Positions 35,371 through 52,384 of a stretch of 64,000 bases of DNA are shown in pieces. Position 1 is the first letter of the stretch; the number at the start of each line of letters is the position of its first letter. The DNA is taken from positions 1,728,001 to 1,792,000 of the forward strand of contig CAVXXK010000001.1 in the NCBI GenBank assembly GCA_963765675.1, written 5' to 3'. The notes below the pieces were generated by a model. It had not been told where the DNA came from, did no database searches, and was given only the letters and a program-made list of their open reading frames with translations. This DNA comes from an uncultured delta proteobacterium (GTDB lineage Bacteria; Desulfobacterota; Binatia; Binatales; Binataceae). A program made the position numbers and the translations under genes.

Positions 35371-35995
35371 CTACACTTTCGGGACTGCCATGCCCTTTTT
35401 CACCGCCGGACGCGCGCCGATCGCGGTGACCCAGCGCTCGACGTGTCTTTGCTTCTCCGGTGACATCAGCCTTCGCGCTTCTGACCAGTCCGTATGCGGC
35501 CGAAATCCACGGATAGGTCGCGATATCCGCGATCGAGTAGTCGCCCGCCAGATACTCGGTGCGCGCGAGCTGATCGTCCATCACCTTGATGAGGCGCGCC
35601 GACTCGGTCATGTAGCGATCGATCGCGTATGGGATTTTTTCGGACGCCGTGTTAACGAAGTGATTAGTCTGCCCGAGCATCGGACCGACATTTGCCATCT
35701 GCCAGAAGAGCCACTCGAGCACCTTGGCGCGGCCCGGGTCGGTCTTCGGGATGAACTTGCCGGTCTTCTCGGCCAGATGCAGCAGAATCGCGCCCGACTC
35801 GAAAATCGAAAGGCCGCTCTCGCGCTCGACGATCGCGGGAATCTTGCTGTTGGGGCAAATCTTTACGAACTCAGGCTTGAACTGGTCGCCCTCGCGGATG
35901 TTCACCGGATGCACGGTGTACGGGAGCGCGCATTCCTCGAGCATCACGGAGACCTTGCGGCCGTTGGGCGTAGTCCAGGTGTAGAGATCGATCAT
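35371..35995 (-). CDS. glutathione S-transferase (YfcG/YghU-like), apparent frameshift near 35446
   Basis: MIDLYTWTTPNG, PNSKIPAI, FESGAIL, YSIADI; C-terminal ERWVTAIGARPAVKKGMAVP in alternate frame. Confidence 0.88.
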
Positions 35996-36135
35996 GGCAG
36001 TGTTCCTTCTCTGAATCAGTTGCGTTTCGCTACTGAACTTACCGGTATGCCTGCCGCGATCCGCAGGCAAGTGCGCCGGGGTTGCGAATCGAACGCGCGG
36101 CGCGCTAAGCCAAATCTCTGGCGAGGTATCAAATC

Positions 36136-37369
36136 ATGCAAAGCGTATCGCAACTCGAAGGCAGCCCCGAAATTCAGGAACTCCGCAAAAAGGTTTCCGA
36201 CTTTATCGGCGAGCTGATCTATCCGAACGAAGCCGCGCTCTTGAAACACGACGAAGAGTCGGGCCGCGTGATGAAATCGATCCAGTCGAAGGCCAAGGAG
36301 CGCGGCCTGTGGGCGCTCGGGCTGCCCAAAGAGATCGGCGGCGGCGGACTCGGCTTCATGCCGTACGTGTTCGTCAACGAGCTGGTCGGGCGCAGCGAAT
36401 TCGCGATGGCCGGCCTCGGCACGCATTCGGCGCAGGACGCGACGATGCTGCACATGTACGGCAGTCCCGAGCAGCAGAAGCGATGGCTGTTTCCGCTGGT
36501 CAACGGCGACATCTATCCGTGCTTCTCGATGACCGAGCCGGAGGTCTCGGGCGCCGACCCGACCGGGATTGCGCACGCGCGCGGTGCAGGACGGCGACGA
36601 ATGGGTAATCAACGGGCACAAGTGGTTTTCGAGCGGCGCAAATCATGCGGCGTACACCACGGTCATGCTGGTGACCGATCCCGACGCGGCGACCTACGAC
36701 AAGTTCAGCATGATTATCGTTCCGATCGATACGCCGGGACTCAAGATCGAGCGCATCATACCGGTGATGGGCGAGACCGCGGGCGGGCATTGCGAGATTC
36801 GCTTCAACGACGCACGGGTGCCGCTGACCAATCTGCTCGGGCCGCGCGGGCAGGCGTTCAAGATCGCTCAGAAGCGGCTCGGGCCCGGACGGATTTTCCA
36901 TTGCATGCGATGGCTCGGGCAGGCGCAGCGCGCGTTCGAGTTGATGGTCGAGCGAGCGCTCAGCCGCCAGACCTTCGGCGGGCCGCTCTCTGACAAGCAG
37001 ACGGTGCAGAACTGGATCGCCGATTCCGCGGCGGAGATCCAGGCCGCGCGATTGTTGACCCTCGATGCGGCGGCGAAGATCGACGCCGGCGACGAGGCGC
37101 GCGTCGAGATCTCGCTGATCAAGTTCTTCGGTGCCAAGGTCCTGCACGACGTGATCGATCGCGCGATCCAGGTGCACGGCGCACTCGGCGTGTCGGAGGA
37201 TACCCCGCTCGCGCGGATGTATCGTCACGCGCGTTTCGCACGGATCTACGACGGACCCGACGAGGTGCATCGGATGGTGGTATCGCGGCGAATCGTGAGC
37301 GAGTTCAAGAAGGGCCGCAAGTGGGACTTCGCCCGCGGCGTAAGGAGCAAAACCTTCCGCGAAGCATAA
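36136..37369 (+). CDS. acyl-CoA dehydrogenase, apparent frameshift near 36570
   Basis: FSMTEPEVSGAD then INGHKWFSSG, RLGPGRIFHCMR, IQVHGALG, IYDGPDEVH. Confidence 0.9.
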
Positions 37370-37469
37370 ACGATCGCTGCGCTCGCACACGGCGGGACGA
37401 ATCTGAAATGCCTTCTCCCACCGCAGAGCTGTGCGTAACCCATTCGACTGGGATGCTTACACGGATGGC

Positions 37470-37765
37470 GAGATTCCTCGCGATGTATGCAGCGCCAAAG
37501 ACAATGCACGACGCAGAGCTGGCGCTAGATTCGCGCTCGGAATGACAACTCTCGCGGGCTGTGTCATTCCGAGCGCGGGCAGGCGACGCCCAGGGCGACC
37601 ATAACGTCCGTCGAGTGGCAGAGATCGCGAGGATCTCGCCTCGGCACTGGCACAGTTTCCGAAGTATCAGGCAAAACTCTCCTTTCAGGGCGAGGAACCG
37701 GACAGAGATCGGCGCGATCGCGCGTACGTCCTTCTGTCGCGCGTGCCGCTGCGCCAGGAATCCCC
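37470..37765. repeat. GTCATTCC/GGAATGAC-type palindromic repeat
   Basis: cgcgctcggaatgaca...tgtcattccgagcgcg inverted pair; shared with 13091-13164. Confidence 0.7.
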
Positions 37766-37827
37766 GCGCGCACGCTCTCGCAAACGTCCGCCAACCGCTG
37801 TCATCGCCTGATGCTTTAATGTTCAGC

Positions 37828-38967
37828 ATGAATAAATTGGAAACTCATCGACCGGCTCGCGCTCGGCTGATAGTCCAAATGTTCGACACGCGGGATCTTG
37901 ACGATCTGGTTCAGAATGTCTTTCGGACCACGATCGCCGCGCGCGGGCTGCGATACGTCAGGCAATCCGATTGGCAATCCGCCATGGCTTTTACCGCCGC
38001 AATGGCGCCGGAATATTTGCGTCCCGATGACGAAGTTCTGATTGATATGCGCGACGACTGCGACTTGTGGCTGACTCTGGAGCGTCGCGGCGTTGTGATT
38101 CAACTCTTCGCCTGTGAGCAATTCGGCAGAGTTACTCTCTTGGCAGCCGGGTGCGATTCGCAATCAATCGAGGCATGCATTCGAGACCATCGCGCGATTT
38201 TCGAGTCGCCGGATTGCGAAGAACCCGACGGGCCGAGTGCGGAGATCGCGTTCTGGTGCCTGTCCGAAAAAGGACCCCAACGCAAAGCGAAGAAACTGAA
38301 GGTACCCGCATGGTGCGGGATCAAAGACAACTATGCGATGCGAACCGCCGCCGCGATCGACCATCTTCTCGCAGGCTTCAAAGCGGGCGTGGGCGGACGC
38401 CTGTTGCTGTGGCATGGAAAACCGGGAACGGGCAAAACCTTCGCAATTCGCGCGCTCGCATGGGAGTGGAGAGAGTTCTGCCGGTTCGAATATATTTTCG
38501 ATCCCGAAAACCTGCTTGGTCCACGCGCGGACTATCTATCGCGAATGATAATCGGCGGTAACGAATCGGAAGATAAAGGCAATACTCAGTGCTGGCGGAT
38601 GCTGGTGCTCGAAGACACGGGCGAGTTACTGAGTATGGATGCCAAAGAGCGCGCTGGCCAAGGCCTCTCGCGGCTACTCAATGCGGTAGACGGCCTGCCG
38701 GGTCAAGACTCGCGCGTGCTGCTGTTGATCACAACGAATGAGGACCTGGGCACACTCCATCCGGCGGTAACCCGTCCCGGCCGCTGCGCCTCGCAAATTG
38801 AGTTTCTGCCGCTTGCGCCCCCGGAAGCAAAAACCTGGCTCAAGAAACGCGCACAGAGGCGTGAGGTCGTCACGCCGAATGGCTCCAGAACGATCGCGGA
38901 ACTCTACGCAATACTCGACGGTCGATACGTACCCGATCGCTCATGCATCGGATTCGTAACTAGCTAG
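37828..38967 (+). CDS. AAA+ ATPase (BCS1/DUF5925-like), start uncertain
   Basis: LLLWHGKPGTGKT Walker A, LVLED Walker B, LSRLLNAVDG, TTN, RPGR. Confidence 0.8.
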   Translation: MNKLETHRPARARLIVQMFDTRDLDDLVQNVFRTTIAARGLRYVRQSDWQSAMAFTAAMAPEYLRPDDEVLIDMRDDCDLWLTLERRGVVIQLFACEQFGRVTLLAAGCDSQSIEACIRDHRAIFESPDCEEPDGPSAEIAFWCLSEKGPQRKAKKLKVPAWCGIKDNYAMRTAAAIDHLLAGFKAGVGGRLLLWHGKPGTGKTFAIRALAWEWREFCRFEYIFDPENLLGPRADYLSRMIIGGNESEDKGNTQCWRMLVLEDTGELLSMDAKERAGQGLSRLLNAVDGLPGQDSRVLLLITTNEDLGTLHPAVTRPGRCASQIEFLPLAPPEAKTWLKKRAQRREVVTPNGSRTIAELYAILDGRYVPDRSCIGFVTS

Positions 38968-39035
38968 AGGATCGAACACGAGCTTGGGCAGAGAGGTAGG
39001 TTTCTACTTATCCTTCCGAAACAGATTTCTCTGAA

Positions 39036-39121
39036 GTGGCACAGGCTTTCAGCCTGTGTTCTGAGAACTTCATGAGCCGGAATCATCCGAGTAAGAAGAC
39101 ACAGGCTAAAGCCTGTGCCAC
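39036..39121. repeat. GTGG-type REP doublet
   Basis: gtggcacaggctttcagcctgtg and inverted cacaggctaaagcctgtgccac. Confidence 0.8.
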
Positions 39122-39160
39122 CTCAGAACAGCAACGGAGACCAGATGGAGGAGCGCGGAA

Positions 39161-40006
39161 TCAGGTTTTGTACTTGCGCTCGAGGGCTTGGTAGTCGGGG
39201 ACACGCATGGTGCGGGTGAAGGATTCGAAGATGTTGTCCTTTGTCGTGGTCGAGGCGATCTTTCCGGTCGCGTGCAGTTCGCGCATCGTGGAGCGCATCA
39301 TCGCGTAGGCTGCGAGCATCGTGCCTATGTGGATGGTTAGCTTGAATGGATATTTTTTCAGCTCATCTATGGGTAGCAAGTCGCCGTTGTACATTAGCGG
39401 CAGATCACCGAGTCGCTTGGCGTAGGTATCCAGGTCTTCGCGGGTTTTGATTCCGTCGGCGAAGATCAGATCGGCTCCCGCGGCGCGATAGGCGCGGGCG
39501 CGCTTTTCCACTTCGCTCCATCCTTCCGGTTCCAGCGCGTCGGTGCGGGCTATAATCACGAGCTCCGGATCACGCCGCGCGTCGCAGGCGGCGCGCACTT
39601 TCGCAGTCATCTCGTTTTGCGGAATTACCTGTTTGCCGGAGAGGAAACCGCAGCGTTTGGGGAATACCTGATCCTCGATATGCAATGCGGCGGCGCCCGC
39701 GTCTTCATATTCGCGGATCGTGCGCGAGACGTTGAGCGGATTTCCGTAGCCGGTATCCGCGTCGCAGATTACCGGCACCTCGACGGCGTTTGAGATCGCG
39801 CGCGCGTTCGCCACCATCTCGGTCATCGTCAGCAGTCCCAAATCGGGAAACCCTCGCGATGCTGCCGTGCCGAATCCGGTCATGTAAACCGCCTCGAAGC
39901 CAGCTTCCTCGGCGAGGCGCGCCTGCAGGCAATCGAACACGAACGGTGCGACGATCATCTCGGGCCGCGAGAGCATCGCACGCAGCCGCGCTCTGGATTG
40001 ATTCAC
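39161..40006 (-). CDS. isocitrate lyase/PEP mutase family protein
   Basis: YMTGFG, DADTGYG, HIEDQ, KRCG, IIARTDA. Confidence 0.9.
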   Translation of the reverse strand: MNQSRARLRAMLSRPEMIVAPFVFDCLQARLAEEAGFEAVYMTGFGTAASRGFPDLGLLTMTEMVANARAISNAVEVPVICDADTGYGNPLNVSRTIREYEDAGAAALHIEDQVFPKRCGFLSGKQVIPQNEMTAKVRAACDARRDPELVIIARTDALEPEGWSEVEKRARAYRAAGADLIFADGIKTREDLDTYAKRLGDLPLMYNGDLLPIDELKKYPFKLTIHIGTMLAAYAMMRSTMRELHATGKIASTTTKDNIFESFTRTMRVPDYQALERKYKT

Positions 40007-40036
40007 GATCGAGTCTCCTTTTGAACGCGGCGCGGA

Positions 40037-40948
40037 TCAGCCGAAATAATCTTCGGGACGAATCGCGGCGATATCGATCTGATGGATGCGGTTTTCGCGC
40101 AAGACCTTGAGATTGACCTGCTCGCCCGGGCGCTGATTGCCAAGCGCCTGGTACATCGCGCGGCGCTCGCTGATGTCGTTTCCATTGACCGTGAGCACCA
40201 CGTCGCCTTGCTGCAGGCCCGCCTTCTCGCCCGGCCCTCCCGGCATCACGTTGGCGATCACCACATGCTCGCGCATCGTGTAGGAGAGCACGCCGAGCCA
40301 CGCGCGCGGGGCGGCCGAGATGCGGCGGCCCTGCTGTATAAGCTCGTCGCGCACGGCGAGAAAGTATTCGCCCGGGACGCCCAGGATCGCGCGCCCGATA
40401 TCGGCGAAGTTCAGATAGGAGATCGCGATCGCCTCGCCGTGGCGATTGACGATCGCGCCCCCGGCAAATCCGATCTGCAGCGACGACGCCGTCACGCAGA
40501 CGCATCGCTCGAGCATGAATTCCCACACCGCGTCGAACGGACCGAGGTAGGTCACGAGCCCGCAATCGGCGCATCGCTTGTCGCCGCCAAGGCTCGCGAC
40601 AGTGAATGCTTCCTCGCCGGGAATGGTTGCCTGCGACGACACGATTTTGAGGCAGGGCAGGGGACGGCCGGCGTCGATCCGCAAGAGCCCAAGCCCGGTG
40701 CTGTAGTCCTTGCCGACGATTTTCGCCTGATGCTGATTGCCGTCGGGCAGCGTGACGACAACGCTGGTCGCGCCGAGCAGCAGGTAGTGGACGGTCGCGA
40801 TCAGCCCGTCGGGGCTGACGATAGTTCCGGTGCCGCGGCGGTCGGTGCCGAGTCCGATCGCGGTCGAGACATGCGTGGCCGGGACCTGCGAATGCACGCC
40901 GACGGTCGCGCGCAGGGCTTTCTCGAGCAATACAACAGGGGCATTCAC
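40037..40948 (-). CDS. S1C (HtrA-like) protease-fold protein with PDZ domain, degenerate catalytic site
   Basis: GTGTIV, ATVHYLL, RAWLGV, PGEKAGLQQGDVV PDZ; no GNSGG motif. Confidence 0.8.
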   Translation of the reverse strand: MNAPVVLLEKALRATVGVHSQVPATHVSTAIGLGTDRRGTGTIVSPDGLIATVHYLLLGATSVVVTLPDGNQHQAKIVGKDYSTGLGLLRIDAGRPLPCLKIVSSQATIPGEEAFTVASLGGDKRCADCGLVTYLGPFDAVWEFMLERCVCVTASSLQIGFAGGAIVNRHGEAIAISYLNFADIGRAILGVPGEYFLAVRDELIQQGRRISAAPRAWLGVLSYTMREHVVIANVMPGGPGEKAGLQQGDVVLTVNGNDISERRAMYQALGNQRPGEQVNLKVLRENRIHQIDIAAIRPEDYFG

Positions 40949-41041
40949 CGCGTCACTTCCCGCAAGTCAGGCTAAGGCTCGCGCGACCCGGTTTCAAGCG
41001 CGCGCGGATCCTCCGCGACAGACTCCATATGATCGCGCGCG

Positions 41042-41074
41042 AAAAAAAGAGGCGGTCCGTTTCCGAACCGCCCC
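41042..41074 (-). terminator. rho-independent terminator
   Basis: minus strand ggggcggttcg-gaaa-cggaccgcctc followed by T7. Confidence 0.8.
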
Positions 41075-41101
41075 GAATTAAATCTGTGATCGGTTTGCAG
41101 C

Positions 41102-41518
41102 TTAACGCTTGCGCGGCGAAACCGGCGCGGCGGGAACCTCGGTCTCATGCGCGCGCATCGTCAGCACCTGCAGCGCCTCGCCGAGATCGAGTTCGCTATA
41201 CTTCTGATTCGAATAGAGAGAGTCGAGCCGCTTGACCGCCTGCTCCGGCGTCATGTCCGCCATCGAGAGCTGGCGCGTGGTCTCGGCGATGATCTTGGGC
41301 GCGCCCTTCCAATGGAACATATTCGCTGCGATGGTCAGGCTATCGAGTTGCGCAACGCTCACCTTCATCGCGTCGGAGTAGCCATTGACGTAGCCGTCCT
41401 TAGCCGAAAGATTAAGCTTGTTCCAGAACGCGCCATCGTGTCCGACGCTGGTAGCCGCAAATGCGACTGCCCAACTCGCCAGAAACCCCAGCAACACGCC
41501 CGCGCCAAACTTTTTCAT
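41102..41518 (-). CDS. secreted hypothetical protein
   Basis: signal peptide MKKFGAGVLLGFLASWAVAFA; FWNKL...KDGYVNGYSDA helical domain. Confidence 0.75.
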   Translation of the reverse strand: MKKFGAGVLLGFLASWAVAFAATSVGHDGAFWNKLNLSAKDGYVNGYSDAMKVSVAQLDSLTIAANMFHWKGAPKIIAETTRQLSMADMTPEQAVKRLDSLYSNQKYSELDLGEALQVLTMRAHETEVPAAPVSPRKR

Positions 41519-41564
41519 TAGACGATGCCCTTCCCGCTCGCCGATGCGGGTTCTTCTAGCAGAA

Positions 41565-41674
41565 AGACGTCGTAACTGCAAAAAACGTTACACATAATAC
41601 GGCGGTAACAGAGAGATTTATAAACAGCCTTCGATTCCACTGATGCCAGACGCCCCAACTTCCCCGCGGTTGCG
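41565..41674 (-). promoter_or_regulatory. two tandem ECF-type promoters
   Basis: CGCAAC-N16-CGTCT at 41674-41648 and TGTAAC-N17-CGTCT at 41592-41565. Confidence 0.65.
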
Positions 41675-41827
41675 CCGCTTATGAGGCACCGCCTCTCCAC
41701 CACCACAGCCGCACACTAGCCGTTTCGCGACTCGCGGTAAATACGGGGGTTCCGGGTTATTTTCGGGACTGGCGGGATTGAACCTGTCTCTTCAGCGGGA
41801 CATCATCGATCGTCTCCCAGCAGCATC

Positions 41828-42938
41828 ATGGATACCTCCCAGAAGCAGATAGCCACCGAAGTATTGAGGTTTATCCACAGACCTGAACCTGGGTTATTCG
41901 ACGCTTTGGCTTTGAGTGTCTTTCGCTATCAGTATAATTCTATCGCATCGTATAAAGACTATTGTCACCAGCTCAACGTCGATCCGGATGTAGTTCGATC
42001 CCCTGATCAAATTCCGCTGGTCAGTACAATCGCCTTCAAGTATGCGGAACTTGCCCCGACCGGCGCCGGCGAGATTCTCGGCGCGAGAGAGTTTCTGACC
42101 AGTGGCACGACGATTGGCGCGGACCGGCGTGGCCGCCACGTCGTCGCTCGGCCCGAGGTTTATCAGCGCATCGGCGATTGCGCATCTTCGCGCGATGCTG
42201 TTTCCCGACGACACGCCGATGCGGATGCTCGCGATGCATCCGACGGCCGAGCGGATGCCCGAGTCGTCGCTGTCGGCAATGATCACCTGGTGTATCGAGG
42301 AGTTCGGTGTCGGCGAATCGCGATGCGTCGCTGATCGCGGGCGCGTCGATACGGCTGCGGCGCTCGCGTTCCTGCGCGAGGTGTCGGCGGCGCGCGAGCC
42401 GGTATGTATCCTCGGGACGACGGCCGCCTTTGCCGCATTATTCGAACTGATGGCCAAGACGCGCGAGCGGCTCAAGCTGCCCGCCGGTTCGCGGATGATG
42501 GACACGGGCGGTCCCAAGGGGCAACGCGTGCCGCTGTCGCCAGCCGAGGTCGCGTCGCGCGCCGGCGAACTGGTGGGCGTCGAGGGTGACCTCGTCATCA
42601 ATGAATACGGGATGACGGAGCTGTGCTCGCAGCTCTATGACGCGACGCCGTTCAACTCGCGACGCGGCGGCGCGCCCGGAGCGCGGGTCAAGCTCGCGCC
42701 GCCGTGGATGCGCCCGATGGCGATCGATCCGGCTTCGATGCGCCGGTTGCCGGCGGGGACGCCCGGGATTCTCGCGTTTATCGATCTGGCGAACGTCTGC
42801 TCGGTCTCAGGGATCCTGACTGAGGATTTGGGAATCGTAGAAGGTAGATCCGTGCGGGTGCTCGGACGGGCGCTCGGCGCAGGAGCGCGGGGATGCGCGC
42901 TATCGATCGAATCGTTCCAGGCGGCGGCGCGCCGGTGA
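41828..42938 (+). CDS. LuxE-like acyl-protein synthetase, apparent frameshift near 42165
   Basis: FRYQY...Y, IPLV...AFK, FLTSGTT, MDTGGPKG, NEYGMTELCSQLYD, DLAN, TEDLG, LGRA...RGC. Confidence 0.85.
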
Positions 42939-44144
42939 GTGAGCAGGTCACCGAAGCAGCGATCTCGGGCGCGATTTCGCGGATGCGCGCACGCGTCGGA
43001 GAACCTCATGATCCGCGACACGCCGCGAGCGTTCTCGCCTCGGTGCTCGAGCGATGGCGCGAGCGCGACTTTGCTCCGCGCCGCGCGGCGGTCGCGCAAA
43101 TCAGCGCGGGCCTGGGTTTTTCGGCGGCGCTGCTCGATGCGTCGTTCGACGCGCTGCTGGCGCCGTTCACGCTCGACGCACTTAGATCGTTCGCGGCGGA
43201 TGCCGCGGAGCGGCGCGAGATAATCGGCTTCATCATGGCGGGCAACGCGCCCGGCGCGGGGCTGCACGAAGTCGCGATTGCGCTTATCTGCGGCAGCGGG
43301 CGTGATTATCAAGACCGCGACGCAGGAGCCGCACTTTTTCGCCGAGCTCGCGCGCTCGATTCGCGATAGCGACGCGCGGCTCGGCAGCATGATCGAGGTG
43401 TTCAACTGGAGCAGGGCGGATCGCGCTCTGACCGCGGCGCTCGTCGGCGGCGCGAGCAGGGTTGTCGCGTACGGCGACGACGCTACTCTGTCGGCGATAG
43501 GCGGTGAGCGTCTCGTCGGCTTTGGAAGCAGGCTCTCGGGCGCGATCGTCACGCGCGCTATTCGCGACGGCGCGCAGATTCACGCCACCGCTGCGGCGCT
43601 CGCGCGCGACGTTACTCTGTTCGAGCAGCTCGGATGCCTTTCGCCGCATCATGTTTTCGTCGAAGACGACTCGGATGCTCGCGCGCGCGAGTTCGCGCAC
43701 GCGCTGGCCGACGCGATCGCGGCGCTTGGGCTTTCCGCTCCTGCGCCCGAGTCGATGGCGCTCGAAGACGCGGCCGCGCTGCGCCGCGCGCGCGAGACCG
43801 CGCGATGGCGCAGCATCGCGGGCGATGAGGTCGAGCTGATCGAAGGGCCGGGAGTAGCGTGGGCGGTGATATTTGATCGCGATGCGTCGTTTTCGCCGTC
43901 GCCGGGTTTCCGCACCGTTTATGTAAGCCCGTTTCGCGAGCGCGAAGACCTGCGCGTGCGTGTAGCGCCGGCGGCCGGCCGCCTCGAAGCGTTCTCGCTC
44001 GCGGGAGATGACGATGCGCTGATCGGCGATCTCCGCGCGTTCGGCGTGTCGTACATCGCGGCGCCCGGCGCGATACAATCTCCTCCGCTCACGTGGCGCC
44101 ATGGCGGCGGCGTCTTTCTCGATTCGATGATCGGCAAGCGGTAA
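42935..44144 (+). CDS. LuxC-like acyl-CoA/acyl-protein reductase, apparent frameshift near 43295
   Basis: IMAGNAP, IIKTA, VAYGDDAT, GFGSRLS, LARDVTLFEQLGCLSPH; GTGA overlap with luxE-like gene. Confidence 0.82.
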
Positions 44145-45346
44145 TGTCCGACGATCTGAAAACTATGTTCAAGCGCCACGTCGCGCAAACTTCGGATGCG
44201 CCGATCGGTCTCGAAATCGTCCGCGCTGAAGGATGCTGGCTCTACACCGCCGATGGGCGGCGCTACCTTGATCTGATCGCGGGAATCGGCGTCGCTGCGC
44301 TCGGGCATGGCAACCCGCAGGTCGCCGCCGCGATCGAGCAACAGGCGCGGCGTCATCTGCATGTGATGGTTTACGGCGAGTACGTGATCGAAGCGCAGGT
44401 CCGCCTCGCGGCGCGACTTGCCGAGCTGCTGCCGGCGCCACTCTCGCGCGTCTATTTCACCAACAGCGGGGCCGAGGCGATCGAGGGTGCGCTCAAGACC
44501 GCGCGCAAGTTCACGCGCCGCAGCGGATTTCTTGCGTTCGAGGGCGCATATCACGGCGACACGATGGGCGCGCTGGCGCTCGCCGGAAATCCCGCGTTCC
44601 GAGAGCCGTTCGAGCCGCTGCCCGGGCCGGTGACGCATCTGCCGTTCGACGATGTCGGCGGTCTTGACGCGATTGATTCCTCAGTCGCAGCCGTGATCGT
44701 CGAGCCGGTGCAGGCTGAAGGCGGCGTACGGATTCCCGATGCGAAATTTCTCCGCGCGCTGCGCGAACGATGCGACCGCGCCGGCGCGCTGCTCGTCTTC
44801 GACGAAGTGCTGACCGGCTTCGGGCGCACGGGACGGATGTTCGCGCTCGAGCACTCGGGCGTCGTGCCGGATCTGATCGTGATGGCGAAGGCGCTGGGCG
44901 GCGGGCTGCCGCTGGGAGCGTTCGCGGGACGCGACGAGCTGCTGGCGGTGCTCGCGCACGATCCCGCGCTCGGGCATATCACGACCTTCGGCGGCCATCC
45001 GTTGTCCTGCGCTGCCGGGCTTGCCGCGCTGGAGGTGATCGTGGAGGAGCGGCTGCCTGAGCGCGCCGCCGAGACGGGCGCATACCTGCACGCGCAGCTC
45101 CAGGCGCTCGCGGCGCCCGAGATTGCGGCGGTGCGGGGAATAGGGCTGCTCGTGGGAATCGAGTTTCACGACGCCAATTTCGCGCATCGCTTTGTCGCTG
45201 CGGCGCTTGCGCGCGGCGTGGTGATCAACTGGACGCTAAACGCCGAGGCGGTGGTCCGGATCGCTCCGCCGCTGGTGATAAGCCGACAAGAAGTTGACTT
45301 TGGCGTCCGATTGTTACGACTTGCGCTAACCGATGCCCGCATCTGA
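44144..45346 (+). CDS. class III PLP-dependent aminotransferase
   Basis: YLDLIAGIGV, NSGAEA, YHG, EPVQAEGG, FDEVLTGFGRTG, MAKALGGG, TTFGGHP; TAATG overlap. Confidence 0.92.
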   Translation: MSDDLKTMFKRHVAQTSDAPIGLEIVRAEGCWLYTADGRRYLDLIAGIGVAALGHGNPQVAAAIEQQARRHLHVMVYGEYVIEAQVRLAARLAELLPAPLSRVYFTNSGAEAIEGALKTARKFTRRSGFLAFEGAYHGDTMGALALAGNPAFREPFEPLPGPVTHLPFDDVGGLDAIDSSVAAVIVEPVQAEGGVRIPDAKFLRALRERCDRAGALLVFDEVLTGFGRTGRMFALEHSGVVPDLIVMAKALGGGLPLGAFAGRDELLAVLAHDPALGHITTFGGHPLSCAAGLAALEVIVEERLPERAAETGAYLHAQLQALAAPEIAAVRGIGLLVGIEFHDANFAHRFVAAALARGVVINWTLNAEAVVRIAPPLVISRQEVDFGVRLLRLALTDARI

Positions 45347-45443
45347 TCCACGAACGCCCGATCTTTGGACTTTTGCCACGATGCCCCCTCAACTATGATC
45401 AAAGTTCATCGCGCCACTTGCGCGGCGAAGTTTTGTTCATCGA

Positions 45444-46769
45444 GTGACCATTCATCCTGACAACTCCGCTGGCTCCGCTCCAAGCGCGAACTCGCCCGAT
45501 CCTCGCGCCCGTACGCTCGTCTGGACCAACGACGACGACGAGGCTCTGGGGGTCCTCAAGATTGGCGGAGCGCTGGGACTCTTCTTCTTGCTGGTTTACG
45601 CGATCGTCGATTCGGTCGGCGGGCGCAGCGGATTGGCGGTCGAGGCCGAGCATTGGGCCCTGCTGGCGGGAACCTGCCTGTTCTTTGGCATGACCTGGGC
45701 CCGGGCGTTCCGGCGGCACTGGAAATTGTGGACGCTCGTGTACTGCGCTTTCATGATGACGATGTTCGTCGCGATCAGCGCGCGCACCGGCGATCCCGAG
45801 TCACGGTTCATCGCGATGCTGCTGTGTCCGCTCGCGACCGCGTCGTTCGTCAGTTGGGGATCGCGTTGGCAGTTCGCGATGGGCGTGACGGTAATCTTGA
45901 TTGCCGCTGTCGCGGAGCACTTCGTTCCGGTGGCCACGCGGCTCAACGCCTACCGATGGATGGGGCTTGGCGCGGCGCTCGCGTTCGGACAGGCGACGGC
46001 GGTGTTTCTCGAGCGCTATCGGGTGCGGATTCGCAGACAATTCGCGGCGCTGGAAGAGGCGGCGCGGTTTCGCGAAACCCAGATCTCGACCATGGCGCAT
46101 GACATCAGCAGCCCGATCGCCGCGCTCACCGGCTACGCGCAACTGCTCGAAGAAGACGCCTCCGACCCGGTTGAGCGCCGCCAGATTCTTGCGCGGATCG
46201 GATCGACGGCCTGGAACATGAACCTGGTGGTCAGCAACGTGCTCGATTTGTATCGGATCGAAGAGGATGGCCGCTTTCATCCGATCCTGACCCGCGTCGA
46301 TCTGAGCCGCATTATCATCGCGGCATCCGAGGACTGCGCGGCGGAAGCCGCGCGGCGCGGGCTCGAGGTCACGACCGTGCTCTCGGTGCTGCAGCCGGCC
46401 ACGCTCGACGGACATCATCTGGACCGGATCGTGCGCAACTTGATGGCGTTCGCGATCGGGCGCGCGAACCGCGGAGTGGTGTCACTGCGCGCGGCGGTGC
46501 ATGATCGCAAGCTCAGGATGGAAGTCAACGCGCAGTGCCCGAGCGTCGCTCCTGCCGACCTGGCCGCCCTGCTGGCGGGACCTGATCGCAGCGGTCACGG
46601 AGCGGGCTCGGCCTCGCTCGGGCTGTTTGTCGCGCGCGTGATGGCGGAGTCGGCGGGCGGGAGCGTCGAAGCGAGTTTCGAGCGCGCGACCGGGCTTACG
46701 CTGCGCGCGGCGATCCCAATTGCGGACGTCGGAGGCGCATCGGGGGCTGCGGATCCAAGCGCGCCGTGA
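45444..46769 (+). CDS. membrane sensor histidine kinase with degenerate ATPase domain
   Basis: about 5-6 TM helices, MAHDISSPIAALTGYAQLL H-box, weak N/G boxes. Confidence 0.75.
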   Translation: MTIHPDNSAGSAPSANSPDPRARTLVWTNDDDEALGVLKIGGALGLFFLLVYAIVDSVGGRSGLAVEAEHWALLAGTCLFFGMTWARAFRRHWKLWTLVYCAFMMTMFVAISARTGDPESRFIAMLLCPLATASFVSWGSRWQFAMGVTVILIAAVAEHFVPVATRLNAYRWMGLGAALAFGQATAVFLERYRVRIRRQFAALEEAARFRETQISTMAHDISSPIAALTGYAQLLEEDASDPVERRQILARIGSTAWNMNLVVSNVLDLYRIEEDGRFHPILTRVDLSRIIIAASEDCAAEAARRGLEVTTVLSVLQPATLDGHHLDRIVRNLMAFAIGRANRGVVSLRAAVHDRKLRMEVNAQCPSVAPADLAALLAGPDRSGHGAGSASLGLFVARVMAESAGGSVEASFERATGLTLRAAIPIADVGGASGAADPSAP

Positions 46770-47786
46770 AGCATCCTGCGCCACCTTCTCCCGTCGCGAA
46801 TCGTCTCGCGTCGCGTCGCGACCGCCGCTCCAGGCGAGTTCGATCTGATCGCGCGGATCTGCGCGCGATTACCGCTTTCGCGCCGCACCATCCTCGGCCC
46901 CGGGGATGACGCGGCGATTCTCGAGCCTGGCGCCGGCCGGCAACTGGTCACGATCGATTCCGTCGTCGAGGGCGTGCACTTCGACTTGCGCTGGGGCACT
47001 CCCGAGCAATTGGGCGCGCGTGCGCTGGTCGTGAACTTAAGCGATATCGCCGCGATGGGCGGGGCGCCATTTGCGTGTGTCGTCAACCTGGCGATTCGGC
47101 CGGGTCTCACGCCTAAATTTTTCGAACGGATGTACGCCGGGCTCGCGCGCGCGGCCCGTGCGGCGCGCGTCGACGTGGTCGGTGGAAATGTTACTCGCGC
47201 TGAACAGCTTGCGATCACGATCGCGCTGTTTGGCGACGCGCCCGCAAAACCGTTGCGCCGCGACGCAGCCCGCGTCGGTGATGGAATTTTCGTCACCGGA
47301 ACCTTGGGCGACGCCGCAGTGGGTTGGCGTGTCCTCGCGGGCAAGCTCCGCGCGCGCGGCACCGCGCGAACTCATCTGATTAATTCCTTTCTTGCGCCAA
47401 CCGCGCGGCTCGCAGCCGGCGCAAGGCTCGCGCGAATTCGCCCGGCTCCTGCCGCGATCGATATCAGCGACGGCCTGTGGCAGGACCTTGGGCATATCCT
47501 GCAGCGCGGCCGCGTTGGCGCGGAAATCGATCCGCGCGCGATTCCGGTGTCGGACGCCTATCGCGCCGTAATGCGCGGCGATCTTTCGCTCGCGCTCGGC
47601 GGCGGCGAGGACTACGAGCTGCTGTTCTGCGCGCATCAGAAATACAGCGCGCGCAGGCTCGCCACGATGCTCGGCGTGCCGGTCGCGCGGATCGGCACGA
47701 TCGTCAAAGGGCGCGGCGCGCGTTTTGCCGGCGGCGGAGCGCCCGCGCTCGCGGGATGGGATCAGTTGCGGGCGGGCGCGCCGTGA
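46766..47786 (+). CDS. thiL: thiamine-phosphate kinase (5' end uncertain, probable frameshift near start)
   Basis: GEFDLI, GPGDDAA, VEGVHF, NLSDIAAMG, VGGN, IDISDGL, GGEDYELLF. Confidence 0.92.
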
Positions 47787-48997
47787 TCGTCATCCTGCCT
47801 ATCGTGGTTGCGATTCTGATTGTCGTCAGCGCCGCGCTGGCCGCGTCGGAGACGGCGATCTTCACGCTCGCGCGGATGGACCATACGCGCGAGCAACTGT
47901 CTCGCGCGGTCGGCGCCGCACTCGATCGCCTGATGGTCCGTCCGCTCGAGTCTCTGATCGTCGTGATCGGGATCAACGAGGCGTCGAACGTCTTCGCCGA
48001 GTGCCTTGCGACCACATTTTTTCTGCTCTGGCTCGGCGCCGATATCGGGCCGTACGTCGCCGCGCCGGTGATGCTGGTGCTCGTGCTGATCTTCTGCGAC
48101 ATCACGCCCAAGACTTTCGCGCTCGCCTATCCGGCTGGAGTCGCGCGCCTGACCGCGCGTCCGCTCGCGATCCTGACCGCGATCGTGCATCCGATCGCGC
48201 GCCACTTCACGCCGCTCGATGAAGCGCCTCATCCGGGCCCCGTCTCCGAGGCGGAGTTCAAGGCGCTCTTGCGGCTGGGGGAGCATCAGGGCGAGGTCGA
48301 ACCCGCCGAGCGTGCGCTGATTCATCGCGTATTCGATTTCGGCTTGCGCCGCGCCGCTGAAGTGATGACGCCGGCCGAGAAAATCTTCACGCTCGATATC
48401 GCGACAGCGCCCGCGCAGTTGATGGCGGAAATCGCGCACGGCCATTTCTCGCGCGTGCCGGTATATCGCGGAACACCCGGCAATATCGTCGGGATCCTGC
48501 ACGCCAAGGACCTTGCGGCGCGCCGCCTCGAAAGTACATCGCCGCGCGTCGATCGCCTGCTGCGTCCGGCGTACTTCATTCCGCCGGCGAAAGCGCTCGG
48601 CGATTTGTTCGACGAGATGCGGCGCGGACGATTTCAGATGGCGCTGGTGGTCAACGAGTACGGCCATCTGCTGGGGCTGGTGACGCTGGAAGACCTGCTC
48701 GAAGAACTGTTCGGCGAGCTGCGCGATGAATTCGACTCCGAAGTTCCCGAGCTGGAAAAAATCAACGATCATGAATGGCTCGTGTCGGGCGCGATCGAGG
48801 TCAAGAAGCTCAACCTCGCTCTCGGCGCCAATCCTCCCATCGAAGCGCGCGGCGGCGGTCCTACGCTCAGCGCCGTGCTGTTGCGCAAGCTGGGCCGCGT
48901 CCCGCCTGCCGGGGAGATTTTGCAACTGGGCGCATTCGCGGCCCGCGTCGAGCGAGTGCGCGGCGCGACCGTCGAGCAGGTGAGGCTCACGCGATGA
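47783..48997 (+). CDS. CNNM/HlyC-CorC family transporter (DUF21-CBS-CorC)
   Basis: ASETAI, DITPK, VMTP, FSRVPVY, VNEYG...VTLEDLLEELFGEL. Confidence 0.88.
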   Translation: MIVILPIVVAILIVVSAALAASETAIFTLARMDHTREQLSRAVGAALDRLMVRPLESLIVVIGINEASNVFAECLATTFFLLWLGADIGPYVAAPVMLVLVLIFCDITPKTFALAYPAGVARLTARPLAILTAIVHPIARHFTPLDEAPHPGPVSEAEFKALLRLGEHQGEVEPAERALIHRVFDFGLRRAAEVMTPAEKIFTLDIATAPAQLMAEIAHGHFSRVPVYRGTPGNIVGILHAKDLAARRLESTSPRVDRLLRPAYFIPPAKALGDLFDEMRRGRFQMALVVNEYGHLLGLVTLEDLLEELFGELRDEFDSEVPELEKINDHEWLVSGAIEVKKLNLALGANPPIEARGGGPTLSAVLLRKLGRVPPAGEILQLGAFAARVERVRGATVEQVRLTR

Positions 48998-50292
48998 CGG
49001 CATGGGAGCTTATCGCGGCGATTGCGGCATGCGTCGCGGTGCAGGCGTTTTTCGCCGCGAGCGAAATCGCGGTGGTCTCGGCCGACGAGGTAAAGGTGCG
49101 CGCCGAAAGCGAACGCGGCTCTGCGCGCTCGCACGCGCTCGGCGCGCTGCTGGCAAATCGCGATCGGCTGCTCGCGCTGACGCTCACCAGCAACAACGTC
49201 GCGACCGTTCTTGCCGCCGTGATGCTGACCGCATTCCTGCATCGCCTTTACCCAGGCTACTCGTATTGGGCGCCGTTCATGCTCGCGCCGGTCACGCTGA
49301 TTTTTGGCGAATCGATTCCGAAGCTTGTAGCGCTCGGGAATCCGCTTTGGGTCGCGCGCGTCGCCGCGCCTCCGCTGCGGATCCTCGCGACGATTCTCGC
49401 GCCGATCCTGGTCGCCGAAACCTTGCTCAGCCGCGCCATGCGCCGCGTGGTTGGCGTCGCGCCAGGAGCCGATAGCGTGTTCTTAAGCCGCGAGGACCTC
49501 GCGCGGCTGGTGCATCGCCGCGCGCCCGATTCCGCCGCGCAGGATTTAGCCGATCAGCACGACGCGATTCTGCCTTCCGAGCGTCACATGATCAGCCGGA
49601 TCTTCCGCTTCTCGCGCGCCGACGCGCGCAAGGCGATGGTGCCGCTCGTGCGCGTTGACGCGATTCCGCACGACGTCACGCTCTCCGGTGCGATCGAGAC
49701 CGTCCGCCGAGTCGGCTACAGCCGCCTGCCGGTGTTCCGCGAGCGGATTACCGATATCGTCGGCGTCGTGCACGTGTTTGATCTATTGCAGGCACCCGAT
49801 CTCACTCGCCCAGTCAGCGAGGTGATGCGGCCGGTGAGTTATTTTCCGGAATCGATGCCGCTGGATGAAGTCCTGGTCGCGCTGCAGCGCACCGGAGAGA
49901 ATCTGGCCGTGATCGTGGATGAATACGGCGGCGCCGCGGGAATTATCACGGTCGAAGATTTGCTCGAAGAAGTCGTCGGCGAGATCGACGACGAGCACGA
50001 CAAGACCGAAGAGATCGCGCGCGTGGTAAATCGCGTCACGCTGAGCGTGTCGGCGCGCGCGCCGATCGCGGAATTGAATGAGCGCTTCGCGCTGCGCCTG
50101 CCCGAGGGTGATGAGTATGCTACGATCGGCGGTCTGGTGCTGGAACGTTTGGGTCATATTCCGCAGCCGGGCGAGCAACTCAAAATCCCCGGGATGACGA
50201 TTACTGTTATCCGCAGCGACGTTCGCGCGGTGCGCGAGCTGCGCCTGGCGCTGGAACGCCCGCTGCGCGCGGACGCGGCAAGGCGCCGATGA
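48994..50292 (+). CDS. CNNM/HlyC-CorC family transporter (second paralog)
   Basis: FFAASEIA, GESIPK, YSRLPV, VDEYGG...TVEDLLEEVVGEIDDEHD. Confidence 0.9.
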   Translation: MTAWELIAAIAACVAVQAFFAASEIAVVSADEVKVRAESERGSARSHALGALLANRDRLLALTLTSNNVATVLAAVMLTAFLHRLYPGYSYWAPFMLAPVTLIFGESIPKLVALGNPLWVARVAAPPLRILATILAPILVAETLLSRAMRRVVGVAPGADSVFLSREDLARLVHRRAPDSAAQDLADQHDAILPSERHMISRIFRFSRADARKAMVPLVRVDAIPHDVTLSGAIETVRRVGYSRLPVFRERITDIVGVVHVFDLLQAPDLTRPVSEVMRPVSYFPESMPLDEVLVALQRTGENLAVIVDEYGGAAGIITVEDLLEEVVGEIDDEHDKTEEIARVVNRVTLSVSARAPIAELNERFALRLPEGDEYATIGGLVLERLGHIPQPGEQLKIPGMTITVIRSDVRAVRELRLALERPLRADAARRR

Positions 50293-51059
50293 CCGAAGGC
50301 GCGATCCGCAAAATCCTCGAAAGCGTCGCGGCTGGAACTGTGACCGCGGCGGCCGCGATGCGCGAGCTGCGCGAGCTGCCGTTTCAGGACTTGGGCTTCG
50401 CCAAGCTCGACGGGCATCGCACGCTGCGCCGGGGAGTGCCCGAGGTGGTTTTTGGCGAGGGCAAAACCGCGGCGCAGATCATCGCGATCGGAAAGAGCGT
50501 GGTCGCGTCGGGCAGCAATCTGATCGTCACGCGGCTCGCGCCTGATAAAGCGCGCGCCGTGAAGAAGACGCTTCGCGCGATGACATATCATCCAGAGGCC
50601 GCTCTCGGCGCGATCGTAAAAGAGCGCCCGCGTCCGCGGGGACATGGCGAGATCATGATTATCAGCGCCGGCACCTCGGACATTCCCGTGGCCGAAGAGG
50701 CCGCGATCTGCGCCGAGCTGTTCGGCAACCGCGTCGCGCGCCTGTACGACGTCGGTGTTGCGGGGATTCATCGACTGACCGCGAATCTCGAAGCGGTCCG
50801 CCGCGCGAGCGTACTGATCGTCGTCGCGGGGATGGAGGGCGCGCTGCCCTCGGTGGTCGCGGGGCTCCTCGACAAGCCTGTCGTCGCGGTGCCGACGAGT
50901 GTTGGCTACGGGACCGCGTTCGGCGGAATCGCGGCCCTTCTCGGGATGCTCAATAGCTGCGCAAGCGGCGTGACGGTCGTCAATATCGACAATGGATTCG
51001 GCGCCGCTATCGCCGCGACGCTGATGAATCGCGTCGGAATCGAGCGCGACGCGGAGTAG
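50289..51059 (+). CDS. larB: nickel pincer cofactor biosynthesis protein LarB
   Basis: RRGVPEVVFGEGKT, AGTSDIPVAEEA, DVGVAGIHR, AGMEGALPSVV, VPTSVGYG, VVNIDNGFGAA. Confidence 0.92.
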   Translation: MTEGAIRKILESVAAGTVTAAAAMRELRELPFQDLGFAKLDGHRTLRRGVPEVVFGEGKTAAQIIAIGKSVVASGSNLIVTRLAPDKARAVKKTLRAMTYHPEAALGAIVKERPRPRGHGEIMIISAGTSDIPVAEEAAICAELFGNRVARLYDVGVAGIHRLTANLEAVRRASVLIVVAGMEGALPSVVAGLLDKPVVAVPTSVGYGTAFGGIAALLGMLNSCASGVTVVNIDNGFGAAIAATLMNRVGIERDAE

Positions 51060-52384
51060 TGATGGCGCGGCGCAGCTCAATTACCCAGGGCCGCGCGCGA
51101 CGCGCGATCAAGATGGGCGAGCTCGCGTCCCAGGTTGGTTCGAGCTACCTGTGGAATTCGATCCGGAGGCCGTTTCTCTCGCGCAGCGATCAGGATCGCG
51201 AGCTGCTCGAAACCCATATCCGCAACGCGCAGCGAATCGTCGAAAGCTCGACGCATCTGCGCGGCGCGTTCATGAAGCTTATCCAGATGCTCTCGATGCG
51301 GCAGGATCTTCTGCCGGGCGAGGCGCTCGACGTGCTGAAGGCGACGCAATCGAGCGTGCCGCCGATGAACTACTCGACCATTTCGGATCAGATTCGCCGC
51401 GAGATCGGAAAACGTCCCGAGCAGCTCTTTGCAAAGTTCGATCAGACCGCGTTCGCCGCCGCCTCGCTCGGCCAGGTGCATCGCGCGACCACGCGCGCCG
51501 GAATCGAGGTTGCGGTCAAGGTGCAGTATCCGGGCGTCGAGAAAACGGTCGAGCAGGATCTGGGAAATCTCAAGATGCTGCTGATGACGCTGCAGGCGAT
51601 CGGGCGCGACGTGATGCGCCAGAAGATCGATTGCAACGCGGTGTACAAAGAACTCGAAGAGCGTCTGCGCGAGGAGCTCGACTACGTGCGCGAGGCGCGC
51701 AACATGACCGAGTTCGGGCGATTGCTCGCCGACGACCCCGAGATAATGATCCCGTCGGTGGTTAAGGAGCTGAGCTCGCGCCGCGTGCTGACGATGACCT
51801 ACCTCGACGGCTATCCGCTCGCCGACGCGATGGGGCCGGAAGTCGATCTCGAACTGCGTCAGTGGGTCGCGCGCAAGGCGCAGGCGATGGTCTGGCGGCA
51901 AATCCTCGAGTTCGGAGTGCTGCACACCGATTTTCATCCGGGCAACTACGTGGTGAGCTATCATCCGCGGCTCGGGATTCTCGATTTCGGATCGATCCGG
52001 CGCTTCGCTCCGGCAGTGCGTAAGGCGTACTTGAAAGTCGCGCGCGGAATTGTCGATCTGGACGACCGCGCGATCGGAATCGGGATGCGCGAGCTCGGAT
52101 GGATCGAGCGCGGACAGGACCCGGCGCCGATGGTCGAAATAATCCACGTGCTGTTCGAGCCGATGATGGTCGAGCGCGAATTCGACCCGGCCGAGTACGA
52201 CTCGGTCGCCAAGGCGACGCGCGTCGGCGAGATCGCGTTCGAGCATCGCCTGTACAACTCGCCCGCGCATAGCGTGTTCCTGCTCCGTGCGCTGATCGGG
52301 CTCGAGGGAATTATGCGCAGGCTTGCGGTCAAGGCGAACTATCGCGAAATTTTCCGCGAGTGTGTCGAAAGCGCCGAGCGATGA
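51059..52384 (+). CDS. AarF/ABC1/UbiB kinase family protein
   Basis: AAASLGQVH, VAVKVQYPG, EELDY, HTDFHPGN, LDFG. Confidence 0.9.
   Translation: MMARRSSITQGRARRAIKMGELASQVGSSYLWNSIRRPFLSRSDQDRELLETHIRNAQRIVESSTHLRGAFMKLIQMLSMRQDLLPGEALDVLKATQSSVPPMNYSTISDQIRREIGKRPEQLFAKFDQTAFAAASLGQVHRATTRAGIEVAVKVQYPGVEKTVEQDLGNLKMLLMTLQAIGRDVMRQKIDCNAVYKELEERLREELDYVREARNMTEFGRLLADDPEIMIPSVVKELSSRRVLTMTYLDGYPLADAMGPEVDLELRQWVARKAQAMVWRQILEFGVLHTDFHPGNYVVSYHPRLGILDFGSIRRFAPAVRKAYLKVARGIVDLDDRAIGIGMRELGWIERGQDPAPMVEIIHVLFEPMMVEREFDPAEYDSVAKATRVGEIAFEHRLYNSPAHSVFLLRALIGLEGIMRRLAVKANYREIFRECVESAER

Follow-up and report, generated by a model that had tools for sequence, protein, structure and literature searches.

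A luciferase-free luxE-luxC-aminotransferase module of Binatia as a candidate route from carboxylic acids to primary amines

A luxE-luxC-aminotransferase triad in a Binataceae genome

We analyzed a 64,000-nucleotide stretch of DNA (hereafter the window; positions 1,728,001 to 1,792,000 of contig CAVXXK010000001.1, assembly GCA_963765675.1) from an uncultured delta proteobacterium of the family Binataceae, class Binatia, and examined a triad of consecutive genes encoding a LuxE-like acyl-protein synthetase, a LuxC-like acyl-thioester reductase and a class III aminotransferase (AT) dependent on pyridoxal phosphate (PLP). The genome containing the window (G000) is assembled into 16 contigs totaling 4.5 Mb. 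The three genes are tightly packed (Table 1), with the TGA stop of luxE and the GTG start of luxC sharing a GTGA overlap, and the TAA stop of luxC and the ATG start of the AT gene sharing a TAATG overlap, just as a first-pass annotation made from the sequence alone had claimed. Reading the sequence also located every motif named in that annotation: TSGTT (as LTSGTT), EYGMTE (as NEYGMTE) and a C-terminal RGC in LuxE, EQLGCLSP in LuxC, and QTS and HVMVYGEY in the AT.

Pfam searches place all three products in the expected families. The two luxE fragments score 20.1 and 31.8 bits against PF04443 (cut-off 24.9), LuxC scores 120 bits against PF05893, and the AT scores 355.8 bits against PF00202 over positions 6-402 of 403, identifying it as a class III enzyme. 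No luciferase or LuxD family was found by Pfam among the 20 flanking open reading frames (ORFs) at 35390-52384, a result that bears out the annotated absence of luxA, luxB and luxD for these 20 ORFs, no genome-wide search for the three genes having been made. The linked luxA, luxB and luxD that mark a bioluminescence operon are thus missing from this neighborhood.

Table 1 Coordinates of the triad, its frame splits and nearby genes within the window
Feature	Position	Strand	Details
luxE-like acyl-protein synthetase	41828..42938	+	ATG 41828, TGA 42936-42938; 369 aa if read through
luxE halves in assembly	ORFs 41828..42334 and 42102..42938	+	single-base frame split
luxC-like acyl-thioester reductase	42935..44144	+	GTG 42935, TAA 44142-44144; 402 aa if read through
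luxC halves in assembly	ORFs 42935..43369 and 43278..44144	+	single-base frame split
Class III (PLP) aminotransferase	44144..45346	+	ATG 44144; intact, 400 aa
Extra A (C-A-GCG), luxE frame	42165..42167	+	not in relatives G009 and G005; one base missing in a contig of run X1
Extra A (C-A-GCG), luxC frame	43295..43296	+	not in relatives G009 and G005; one base missing in a contig of run X3
Acyl-CoA dehydrogenase	36136-37369	+	split over two overlapping frames: N-terminal domain, ORF 36136..36993; middle and C-terminal domains, ORF 36569..37369
Divergent 159-aa protein	41102-41581	-	N-terminal hydrophobic segment
thiL	46766-47786	+	first ~9 codons out of frame
CNNM/CBS/CorC-type tandem pair	47477-50292	+	after thiL

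The triad is conserved and its members are naturally fused

The first-pass annotation had proposed neighborhood and phylogenetic profiling of the three families, and the loci and genomes compared here show a widely conserved module. A query with the C-terminal part of LuxC finds matches in 28 of 31 related genomes, and a LuxC profile finds this type in 168 of 201 genomes sampled throughout Binatia (136 of 164 when only high-quality genomes are counted), which amounts to 76 of 88 genera (the 28/31 and 168/201 tallies take in the unpublished genomes G010 and G109). We assembled 32 Binatia loci, of which 16 + 6 were extracted around LuxC hits and 10 (L030-L037, L051, L059) came from a LuxE scan of 185,579 species genomes; the AT never served to find any of them. 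At 27 of these 32 loci luxE, luxC and the AT gene are adjacent and in fixed order, so that the lack of co-occurrence with luxE and luxC that would have spoken against a joint pathway is not what we find. At one further locus (L035) the contig stops after luxE. In 16 of 24 loci, a 4-nt overlap joins the end of luxC to the beginning of the AT gene, an arrangement indicating translational coupling.

Natural fusions connect the same activities. In a collection of 5.8 billion proteins we identified 53 clusters of LuxC-AT fusions (~800-915 aa, PF05893 + PF00202), every one of which keeps GC[LM][ST], HGDT and HxMVYGE, as well as 64 clusters of LuxE-LuxC fusions (~770-860 aa, PF04443 + PF05893), 60 of which keep EYGMTE, R...RGC and the LuxC cysteine motif. 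The LuxC-AT fusion can also be seen in the DNA of seven genomes from one Binatia family (L024; L123-L128). Between them, these two overlapping "Rosetta stone" fusion types span the three activities, and they provide the strongest argument that the aldehyde released by LuxC would be the substrate of the AT. Together with the conserved gene order and the overlaps, they strongly support a functional coupling of the three enzymes.

Candidate triple LuxE-LuxC-AT fusions were rejected: the ~1200-aa frames concerned are LuxC-AT frames that happen to stay open across luxE, the luxE frame itself being a different one at L123-L128 (6/6), and no triple fusion was seen at these six loci. A separate protein of 986 aa (P0250) combines PF04443 and PF00202, with RGC at residue 384, FHGDT at 768 and no recognisable LuxC cysteine motif, and may reflect either a gene called in the wrong frame or an unusual fusion.

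LuxE and LuxC retain the catalytic residues of the luminous enzymes

The sole solved relatives of the LuxE-like and LuxC-like proteins are the two chains of the Photobacterium phosphoreum complex 7XC6. An intact LuxE orthologue from the close relative G009 matches chain 7XC6_E at 3e-12, a profile of 13 LuxE orthologues matches the same chain at E 2.6e-34 (positions 21-354 to chain 38-369), and for LuxC a profile gives E 2.6e-39 against 7XC6_A (positions 26-411 to chain 50-441). For P. phosphoreum LuxE (PpLuxE), the structural study of Tian et al. 2022 (PMC9157457) identifies K238 within a GGGWK loop, R355, and C364, which accepts the acyl group and belongs to a flexible motif at the C-terminus; for PpLuxC it identifies the catalytic C296.

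The Binatia proteins share these residues. In LuxE, DTGG.KG, R347 and R354-G355-C356 are invariant in 13/13 orthologues, with an arginine nine residues ahead of the cysteine, and the GG.K lysine and RGC cysteine align to K238 and C364 (GGGWK and KGC of 7XC6_E), so that the lysine, the arginine and the tail cysteine are all the same as in the luminous enzyme. In LuxC, the cysteine of the GCL(S/T) motif, Asn104 and Gln381 are invariant in 22/22 orthologues, and the GCLS cysteine aligns to C296. Family membership and catalytic residues thus agree for LuxE, as they do for LuxC.

The aminotransferase is distinct from ArgD

Next, we examined the identity of the AT, since the first-pass annotation had conceded that its proposal would fall if the enzyme were simply ArgD. 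The AT scores 371 bits against TIGR00707 and 382.9 bits against NF002874, below the respective ArgD cut-offs of 410.05 and 457, and lies far under the cut-offs of the LysJ, putrescine AT, PigE and BioA models. A canonical argD (482.7 bits, cut-off 410) is present in G000 away from the triad, directly adjoining argB (255.5 bits), and argC (395.1 bits) lies at another place in the genome. The closest solved relative of the AT is the Thermus acetylornithine/acetyl-lysine AT 1VEF (E 6.5e-87), followed by the Escherichia coli putrescine AT 4UOX (2.5e-79).

All 24 triad ATs examined carry the signature QTS / HxMVYGE / (Y/F)HGDT / EPVQAE(G/A)G, with HGDT in place of the HGRT of ArgD. The position of the HGDT aspartate is occupied by arginine in the ArgD of G000 and in 1VEF, and by lysine in 4UOX; we take the arginine found there in ArgD, GabT and OAT-type enzymes to bind the distal carboxylate of the substrate. 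The PLP lysine in AKALGGG is invariant among the triad ATs, and these also retain the C-terminal arginine (VVRxAPPL) with which class III enzymes engage the alpha-carboxylate of their amino-acid partner.

Searching 1.84 billion representatives with the AT returned 11 Asp, 25 Ser, 2 Asn, 70 Arg and 28 Lys at this position among the best 150 hits, with the named Ser/Asn members coming from Bacteroidota (Flavobacterium, Flavobacteriales, Bacteroidales, Cytophagales). This showed that the combination of HxMVYGE with an HGDT-type motif marks a wider putative AT subfamily that extends beyond the triad enzymes. A quick maximum-likelihood tree was then computed from 87 rows: 12 of the 24 triad ATs, 8 class III proteins of G000 (the window AT among them), and the P0255-P0344 representatives with lengths of 370-440 aa, other lengths and later hits being excluded. 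In this tree the triad ATs form a single clade (support 97 in the Shimodaira-Hasegawa-like approximate likelihood-ratio test, SH-aLRT), which groups with the Bacteroidota-type ATs (support 98), and both are separate from an Arg-type clade that contains the ArgD of G000 (support 96). Judged by scores, motifs and phylogeny, the triad AT is not ArgD but a dedicated paralogue. A replacement of ArgB and ArgC by LuxE and LuxC in ornithine synthesis was likewise rejected, as canonical argB, argC and argD are all present elsewhere.

Relatives of the individual components occur outside Binatia in other arrangements. At 19 loci, mostly from Gemmatimonadota, luxE and luxC are found without an AT gene; these pairs (L038-L058, L066) are preceded by an Amidohydro_3 gene and followed by two DrrA-like ABC-2 exporter genes at 12-16 of the 19 loci, which may represent a different use of the acid-reducing pair. 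No Asp-type AT appears among the best hits in four complete Gemmatimonadota genomes. A further 49 loci, mostly from Bacteroidota (L060-L109), carry a lone LuxE-like gene of ~30% identity. One Flavobacterium genome (G035) has a sister AT with HxMVYGE and Ser/Asn for the aspartate (L129, 8084-9280), whose neighbors (an LptA-like protein, a TPR protein and aroE) are uninformative; the lone LuxE-like gene of this genome (~30% identity) is unlinked to it, and the genome has a weak LuxC-family hit alone, at 42.6 bits.

A predicted three-step route from acid to amine

We consider it likely, from the families and the conserved residues, that the module makes a primary amine from a free carboxylic acid by way of the aldehyde, with neither CoA nor a carrier protein taking part. 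In the first step, the LuxE-like enzyme would adenylate the acid with ATP and load the acyl group onto its own C-terminal RGC cysteine. The flexible LuxE tail would then pass the acyl group to the GCLS cysteine of LuxC, where NAD(P)H would reduce the thioester to the aldehyde, and in the third step the dedicated class III AT would aminate this aldehyde. We infer the chemistry of all three steps from family membership and conserved residues. Conservation of the C-terminal arginine (VVRxAPPL) points to an alpha-amino acid, for instance glutamate, as the probable amino donor. The aldehyde itself probably carries no distal carboxylate, because an invariant aspartate replaces the ArgD arginine to which we assign carboxylate binding; it could be aliphatic, leading from a fatty acid to an alkylamine, or bear a cationic or amino group, leading to a diamine. 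The core of the first-pass proposal, a three-enzyme reductive amination, is supported by gene coupling, gene order, fusions and conserved catalytic residues.

Several observations weigh against this route. The Pfam scores of the LuxE fragments (20.1 and 31.8 bits) are weak, and the proteins score far below the equivalog models of the luminous enzymes, at 28.5 to 51 bits against NF052244 for LuxE (cut-off 550) and at 28.7 to 43.4 bits against NF052251 for LuxC (cut-off 750). The LuxC type is found in 0/13, 0/11 and 0/2 genomes of three Binatia families. Among the 32 loci, L016 lacks a luxE in its vicinity and L017 an AT within about 8 kb, luxE lies 8 kb off at L018, and the AT lies 2.6 kb downstream at L022. 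Finally, the neighboring genes are housekeeping genes that offer neither a pathway context nor a hint of the substrate.

One candidate substrate is a fatty acid of long or medium chain length, from which the route would yield a fatty aldehyde and then an alkylamine for a membrane lipid or surface molecule, a reading that we hold only tentatively. The characterized LuxE and LuxC use myristic acid according to the structural study (PMC9157457), and in a preprint on tambjamine BE-18591 (bioRxiv 10.1101/2025.08.11.669332) the LuxC-like TabE and the transaminase TabA yield dodecylamine; an AT lacking the carboxylate-binding arginine would also suit an apolar tail. The luminous LuxE and LuxC are, however, only remotely similar, and their fatty-acid specificity is not transferable to proteins so far below the equivalog cut-offs. 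Binatia LuxC moreover ends ~35 residues short of the PpLuxC C-terminus and so lacks the stretch holding residues 465-483, which the structural study names at the exit of the substrate cleft (PMC9157457), and this too makes specificity not transferable. An apolar pocket has no need of an invariant charged aspartate, and lipid, acyltransferase and acyl carrier protein (ACP) genes were not among the linked genes scanned.

The same route could alternatively act on an acid with an amino or cationic group, such as an omega-amino acid, and lead through an amino-aldehyde to a diamine of the polyamine type, which appears doubtful to us. This reading is suggested by the invariant aspartate where ArgD and 1VEF have arginine and the putrescine AT has lysine, and by the second rank of the putrescine AT 4UOX among the solved relatives; BioA, whose substrate has a neighboring amine, also carries an aspartate at the equivalent position. 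In the nine genomes of the window genus (G000 and eight relatives), spermidine synthase (PF01564) and agmatinase (PF00491) are found in 0/9 and PF01276 decarboxylases in 0/9, with a single PF02784 decarboxylase each. Against it, G000 has two pyruvoyl-dependent arginine decarboxylases (C14:125853-126380 and C1:587776-588306), the genome G022 combines the triad with agmatinase and spermidine-synthase-like genes, so that no clean complementarity holds across the class, and the role of the aspartate is itself a prediction from sequence. Slightly more doubtful still is a bolder form in which the triad would make the precursor of a diamine or polyamine by a pathway not recognised before, with the Asp-type AT trapping an unstable amino-aldehyde at once. 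Such immediate trapping would explain the fusions, and, if true, the route would supply polyamines to a genus in whose nine genomes agmatinase, ornithine/lysine decarboxylases of PF01276 and spermidine synthase went undetected. What weight remains within the acid-to-amine route falls to other acids, neither aliphatic nor amino/cationic.

We also weighed a reversed, catabolic module, in which the AT would deaminate an amine and LuxC, as a member of the aldehyde dehydrogenase (ALDH) superfamily (PMC12041015), would oxidize the resulting aldehyde. Class III ATs are reversible, which favors this direction, but an adenylating LuxE with an acyl-carrying cysteine, fused to LuxC in 64 clusters, would have no role in oxidation, and the same review reports that LuxC keeps just the cysteine of the ALDH catalytic residues (PMC12041015). 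We regard the catabolic direction as very improbable.

Comparison with known systems and significance

Compared with the luminous systems, the Binatia module shares adjacent luxE and luxC genes but has the order E-C rather than C...E, no luxA, luxB or luxD in its neighborhood, and a LuxC of ~400 aa from which the last ~35 PpLuxC residues are absent; the pair is also coupled to an AT, with both E-C and C-AT fusions. The nearest characterized system is TabE/TabA from Streptomyces, in which, according to the preprint (bioRxiv 10.1101/2025.08.11.669332), a LuxC-like acyl-ACP reductase and an omega-transaminase make the dodecylamine of tambjamine BE-18591. The likeness lies in family name and reaction alone, a thioester being converted via an aldehyde to a primary amine, whereas TabE in this account uses acyl-ACP or acyl-CoA thioesters without ATP, has no LuxE partner, and belongs to a specialized natural-product cluster rather than a lineage-wide module.

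TamH and PigE, from tambjamine and prodigiosin synthesis, resemble the LuxC-AT fusions in combining reduction and transamination in one protein, and the AT scores 315 bits against the PigE model. The reductase of TamH is an SDR-type (short-chain dehydrogenase/reductase) domain at the opposite end of the protein. The PigE model NF053554 aligns to the AT part only of the Binatia fusion P0121 (residues 437-757; model 405-730 of 837), so the reductase parts of PigE and the Binatia fusion are not homologous; no LuxC homology to the N-terminal part of PigE was found in this alignment, and a PigE/TamH-type assignment was dropped. ArgD and LysJ share with the triad AT the class III fold, the PLP lysine and the C-terminal arginine, and they too aminate a semialdehyde made from an activated and reduced carboxylate, but the triad AT differs in falling below their cut-offs, in having the HGDT aspartate for the HGRT arginine, and in forming a separate clade.

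Carboxylic acid reductases built from adenylation, peptidyl carrier and reductase domains (A-PCP-R), such as fungal Lys2, reduce a free acid by ATP-dependent adenylation, thioester formation and NADPH reduction. This is the logic that the Binatia module would follow, with the difference that its carrier would be the enzyme's own tail cysteine; no PP-binding carrier domain is found among the Pfam hits of the three triad proteins, which places them outside the A-PCP-R class. In Aeromonas, flagellin glycosylation islands also contain luxE and luxC without luciferase genes, accompanied by an ACP (PMC7874193).

We found no literature on a LuxE-LuxC-AT module in a survey that left uncovered the network tables of the TabE paper, which possibly list Binatia LuxC relatives. 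The statement of the first-pass annotation that no characterized pathway has this composition should be softened in view of dodecylamine synthesis through TabE and TabA as the preprint presents it. The module is thus best described as a variant of known biochemical logic: carrier-free, LuxE-dependent, equipped with its own AT clade and fusions, and nearly class-wide in Binatia.

If the proposed route is correct, most members of Binatia, an uncultured class of soils and sediments, would make a primary amine without CoA or a phosphopantetheinyl carrier. The LuxE-LuxC fusions would then be single-chain, carrier-free carboxylic acid reductases, and the LuxC-AT fusions single-chain thioester-to-amine enzymes. 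Both would be attractive for acid-to-amine biocatalysis, which now relies on carboxylic acid reductase (CAR) enzymes that need a phosphopantetheinyl transferase (PPTase) and a separate transaminase. The analysis also defines an uncharacterized AT subfamily, with HxMVYGE and Asp, Ser or Asn for the ArgD arginine, that is shared with Bacteroidota, and the bacteria with sister ATs include cultured, genetically tractable species that could be used to find the AT substrate.

The frame splits in luxE and luxC are probably assembly errors

To interpret the split genes of the window, we compared it with its two closest near-complete relatives, G009 (86-95% protein identity) and G005, in which luxE and luxC are unsplit single ORFs of 369 aa and 400-407 aa. 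A 12.8-kb three-way alignment revealed four 1-nt insertions private to the window, at 42165, 43295, 45426 (intergenic) and 46793, three of which lie in coding sequence. The insertion at 46793 puts the start of thiL out of frame, the same start in G009 overlapping the stop of the kinase gene. The acyl-CoA dehydrogenase gene is also split, in what looks like another single-base assembly error. Short-read metagenome contigs nearly identical to the window lack the extra bases: at 42167 one base is missing from a 230-nt contig of run X1 (1 mismatch), and at 43296 one is missing from a 151-nt contig of run X3 (2 mismatches).

Because thiL and the acyl-CoA dehydrogenase gene are broken alike, and because both the relatives and the short-read contigs lack the extra bases, both extra A's are most probably consensus errors of the assembly rather than marks of gene decay. 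The short-read evidence has its limits. At each missing-base site it consists of one contig, sequenced to a depth of 3.3-3.7, and the metagenome concerned may contain a different or sister strain; at 42167 run X3 has a depth of 3.11 and no gap, although its bin mean of 0.42 there suggests that the contig merely starts near the site; and at most 0.29 of the sampled window words occur in any sequencing run.

An operon decaying in the window strain, with real frameshifts that make luxE and luxC pseudogenes, is in our view improbable. It would fit the split of both genes in the deposited assembly and the identical C_GCG context of the two inserted A's. Yet luxE and luxC have no further lesions, the AT gene is intact, thiL and the acyl-CoA dehydrogenase gene of the window are disrupted similarly, and near-identical short-read contigs lack the extra bases; the LuxC frames of genus relatives are also mostly far longer (510, 521, 560, 516, 519 and 509 aa) than the 306 aa seen here. 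Real frameshifts were among the grounds on which the first-pass annotation would have withdrawn its proposal, and the frameshifts look technical, being private to this assembly and missing from matching short-read contigs.

Neighboring genes

Upstream of the triad lie genes for an acyl-CoA dehydrogenase, an AAA ATPase, a protein of the phosphoenolpyruvate (PEP)-mutase/isocitrate-lyase family, an HtrA-like protease and the divergent 159-aa protein, and downstream lie a histidine kinase gene, thiL, two CNNM/CorC genes, an aminoimidazole ribonucleotide (AIR)-carboxylase-like gene and an ABC1 kinase gene. Neighbors at the other Binatia loci include histidine kinase, thiL, CNNM/CorC, release factor and NAD kinase genes, with a zinc-dependent alcohol dehydrogenase gene near L017. 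A riboswitch or other RNA leader 5' of luxE was rejected, since Rfam matched nothing in 41400-42000 even with E values up to 1, and a promoter and terminator scan upstream of luxE was not above shuffled sequences.

The 159-aa protein is 98.7% identical to its copy in G009 and adjoins luxE in 9 of 31 clustered Binatia loci (family Binataceae). It has no Pfam or NCBIfam match, and in the Protein Atlas it matches Binatota hypothetical proteins only, plus a weak Rap1a lead. The tandem CNNM/CBS/CorC-type genes of the window encode putative Mg/Co efflux proteins. Outside the Binataceae, Binatia loci (L021, 4979-7057; L024, 5914-7131; L123-L128) carry three small conserved ORFs just 5' of luxE, with no Pfam match to any of them: one of ~190 aa with an ENRWWVD motif, one of ~100 aa with a transmembrane segment and a coiled coil, and an acidic one of ~90 aa, whose gene runs in the same direction as luxE in some cases and divergently in others.

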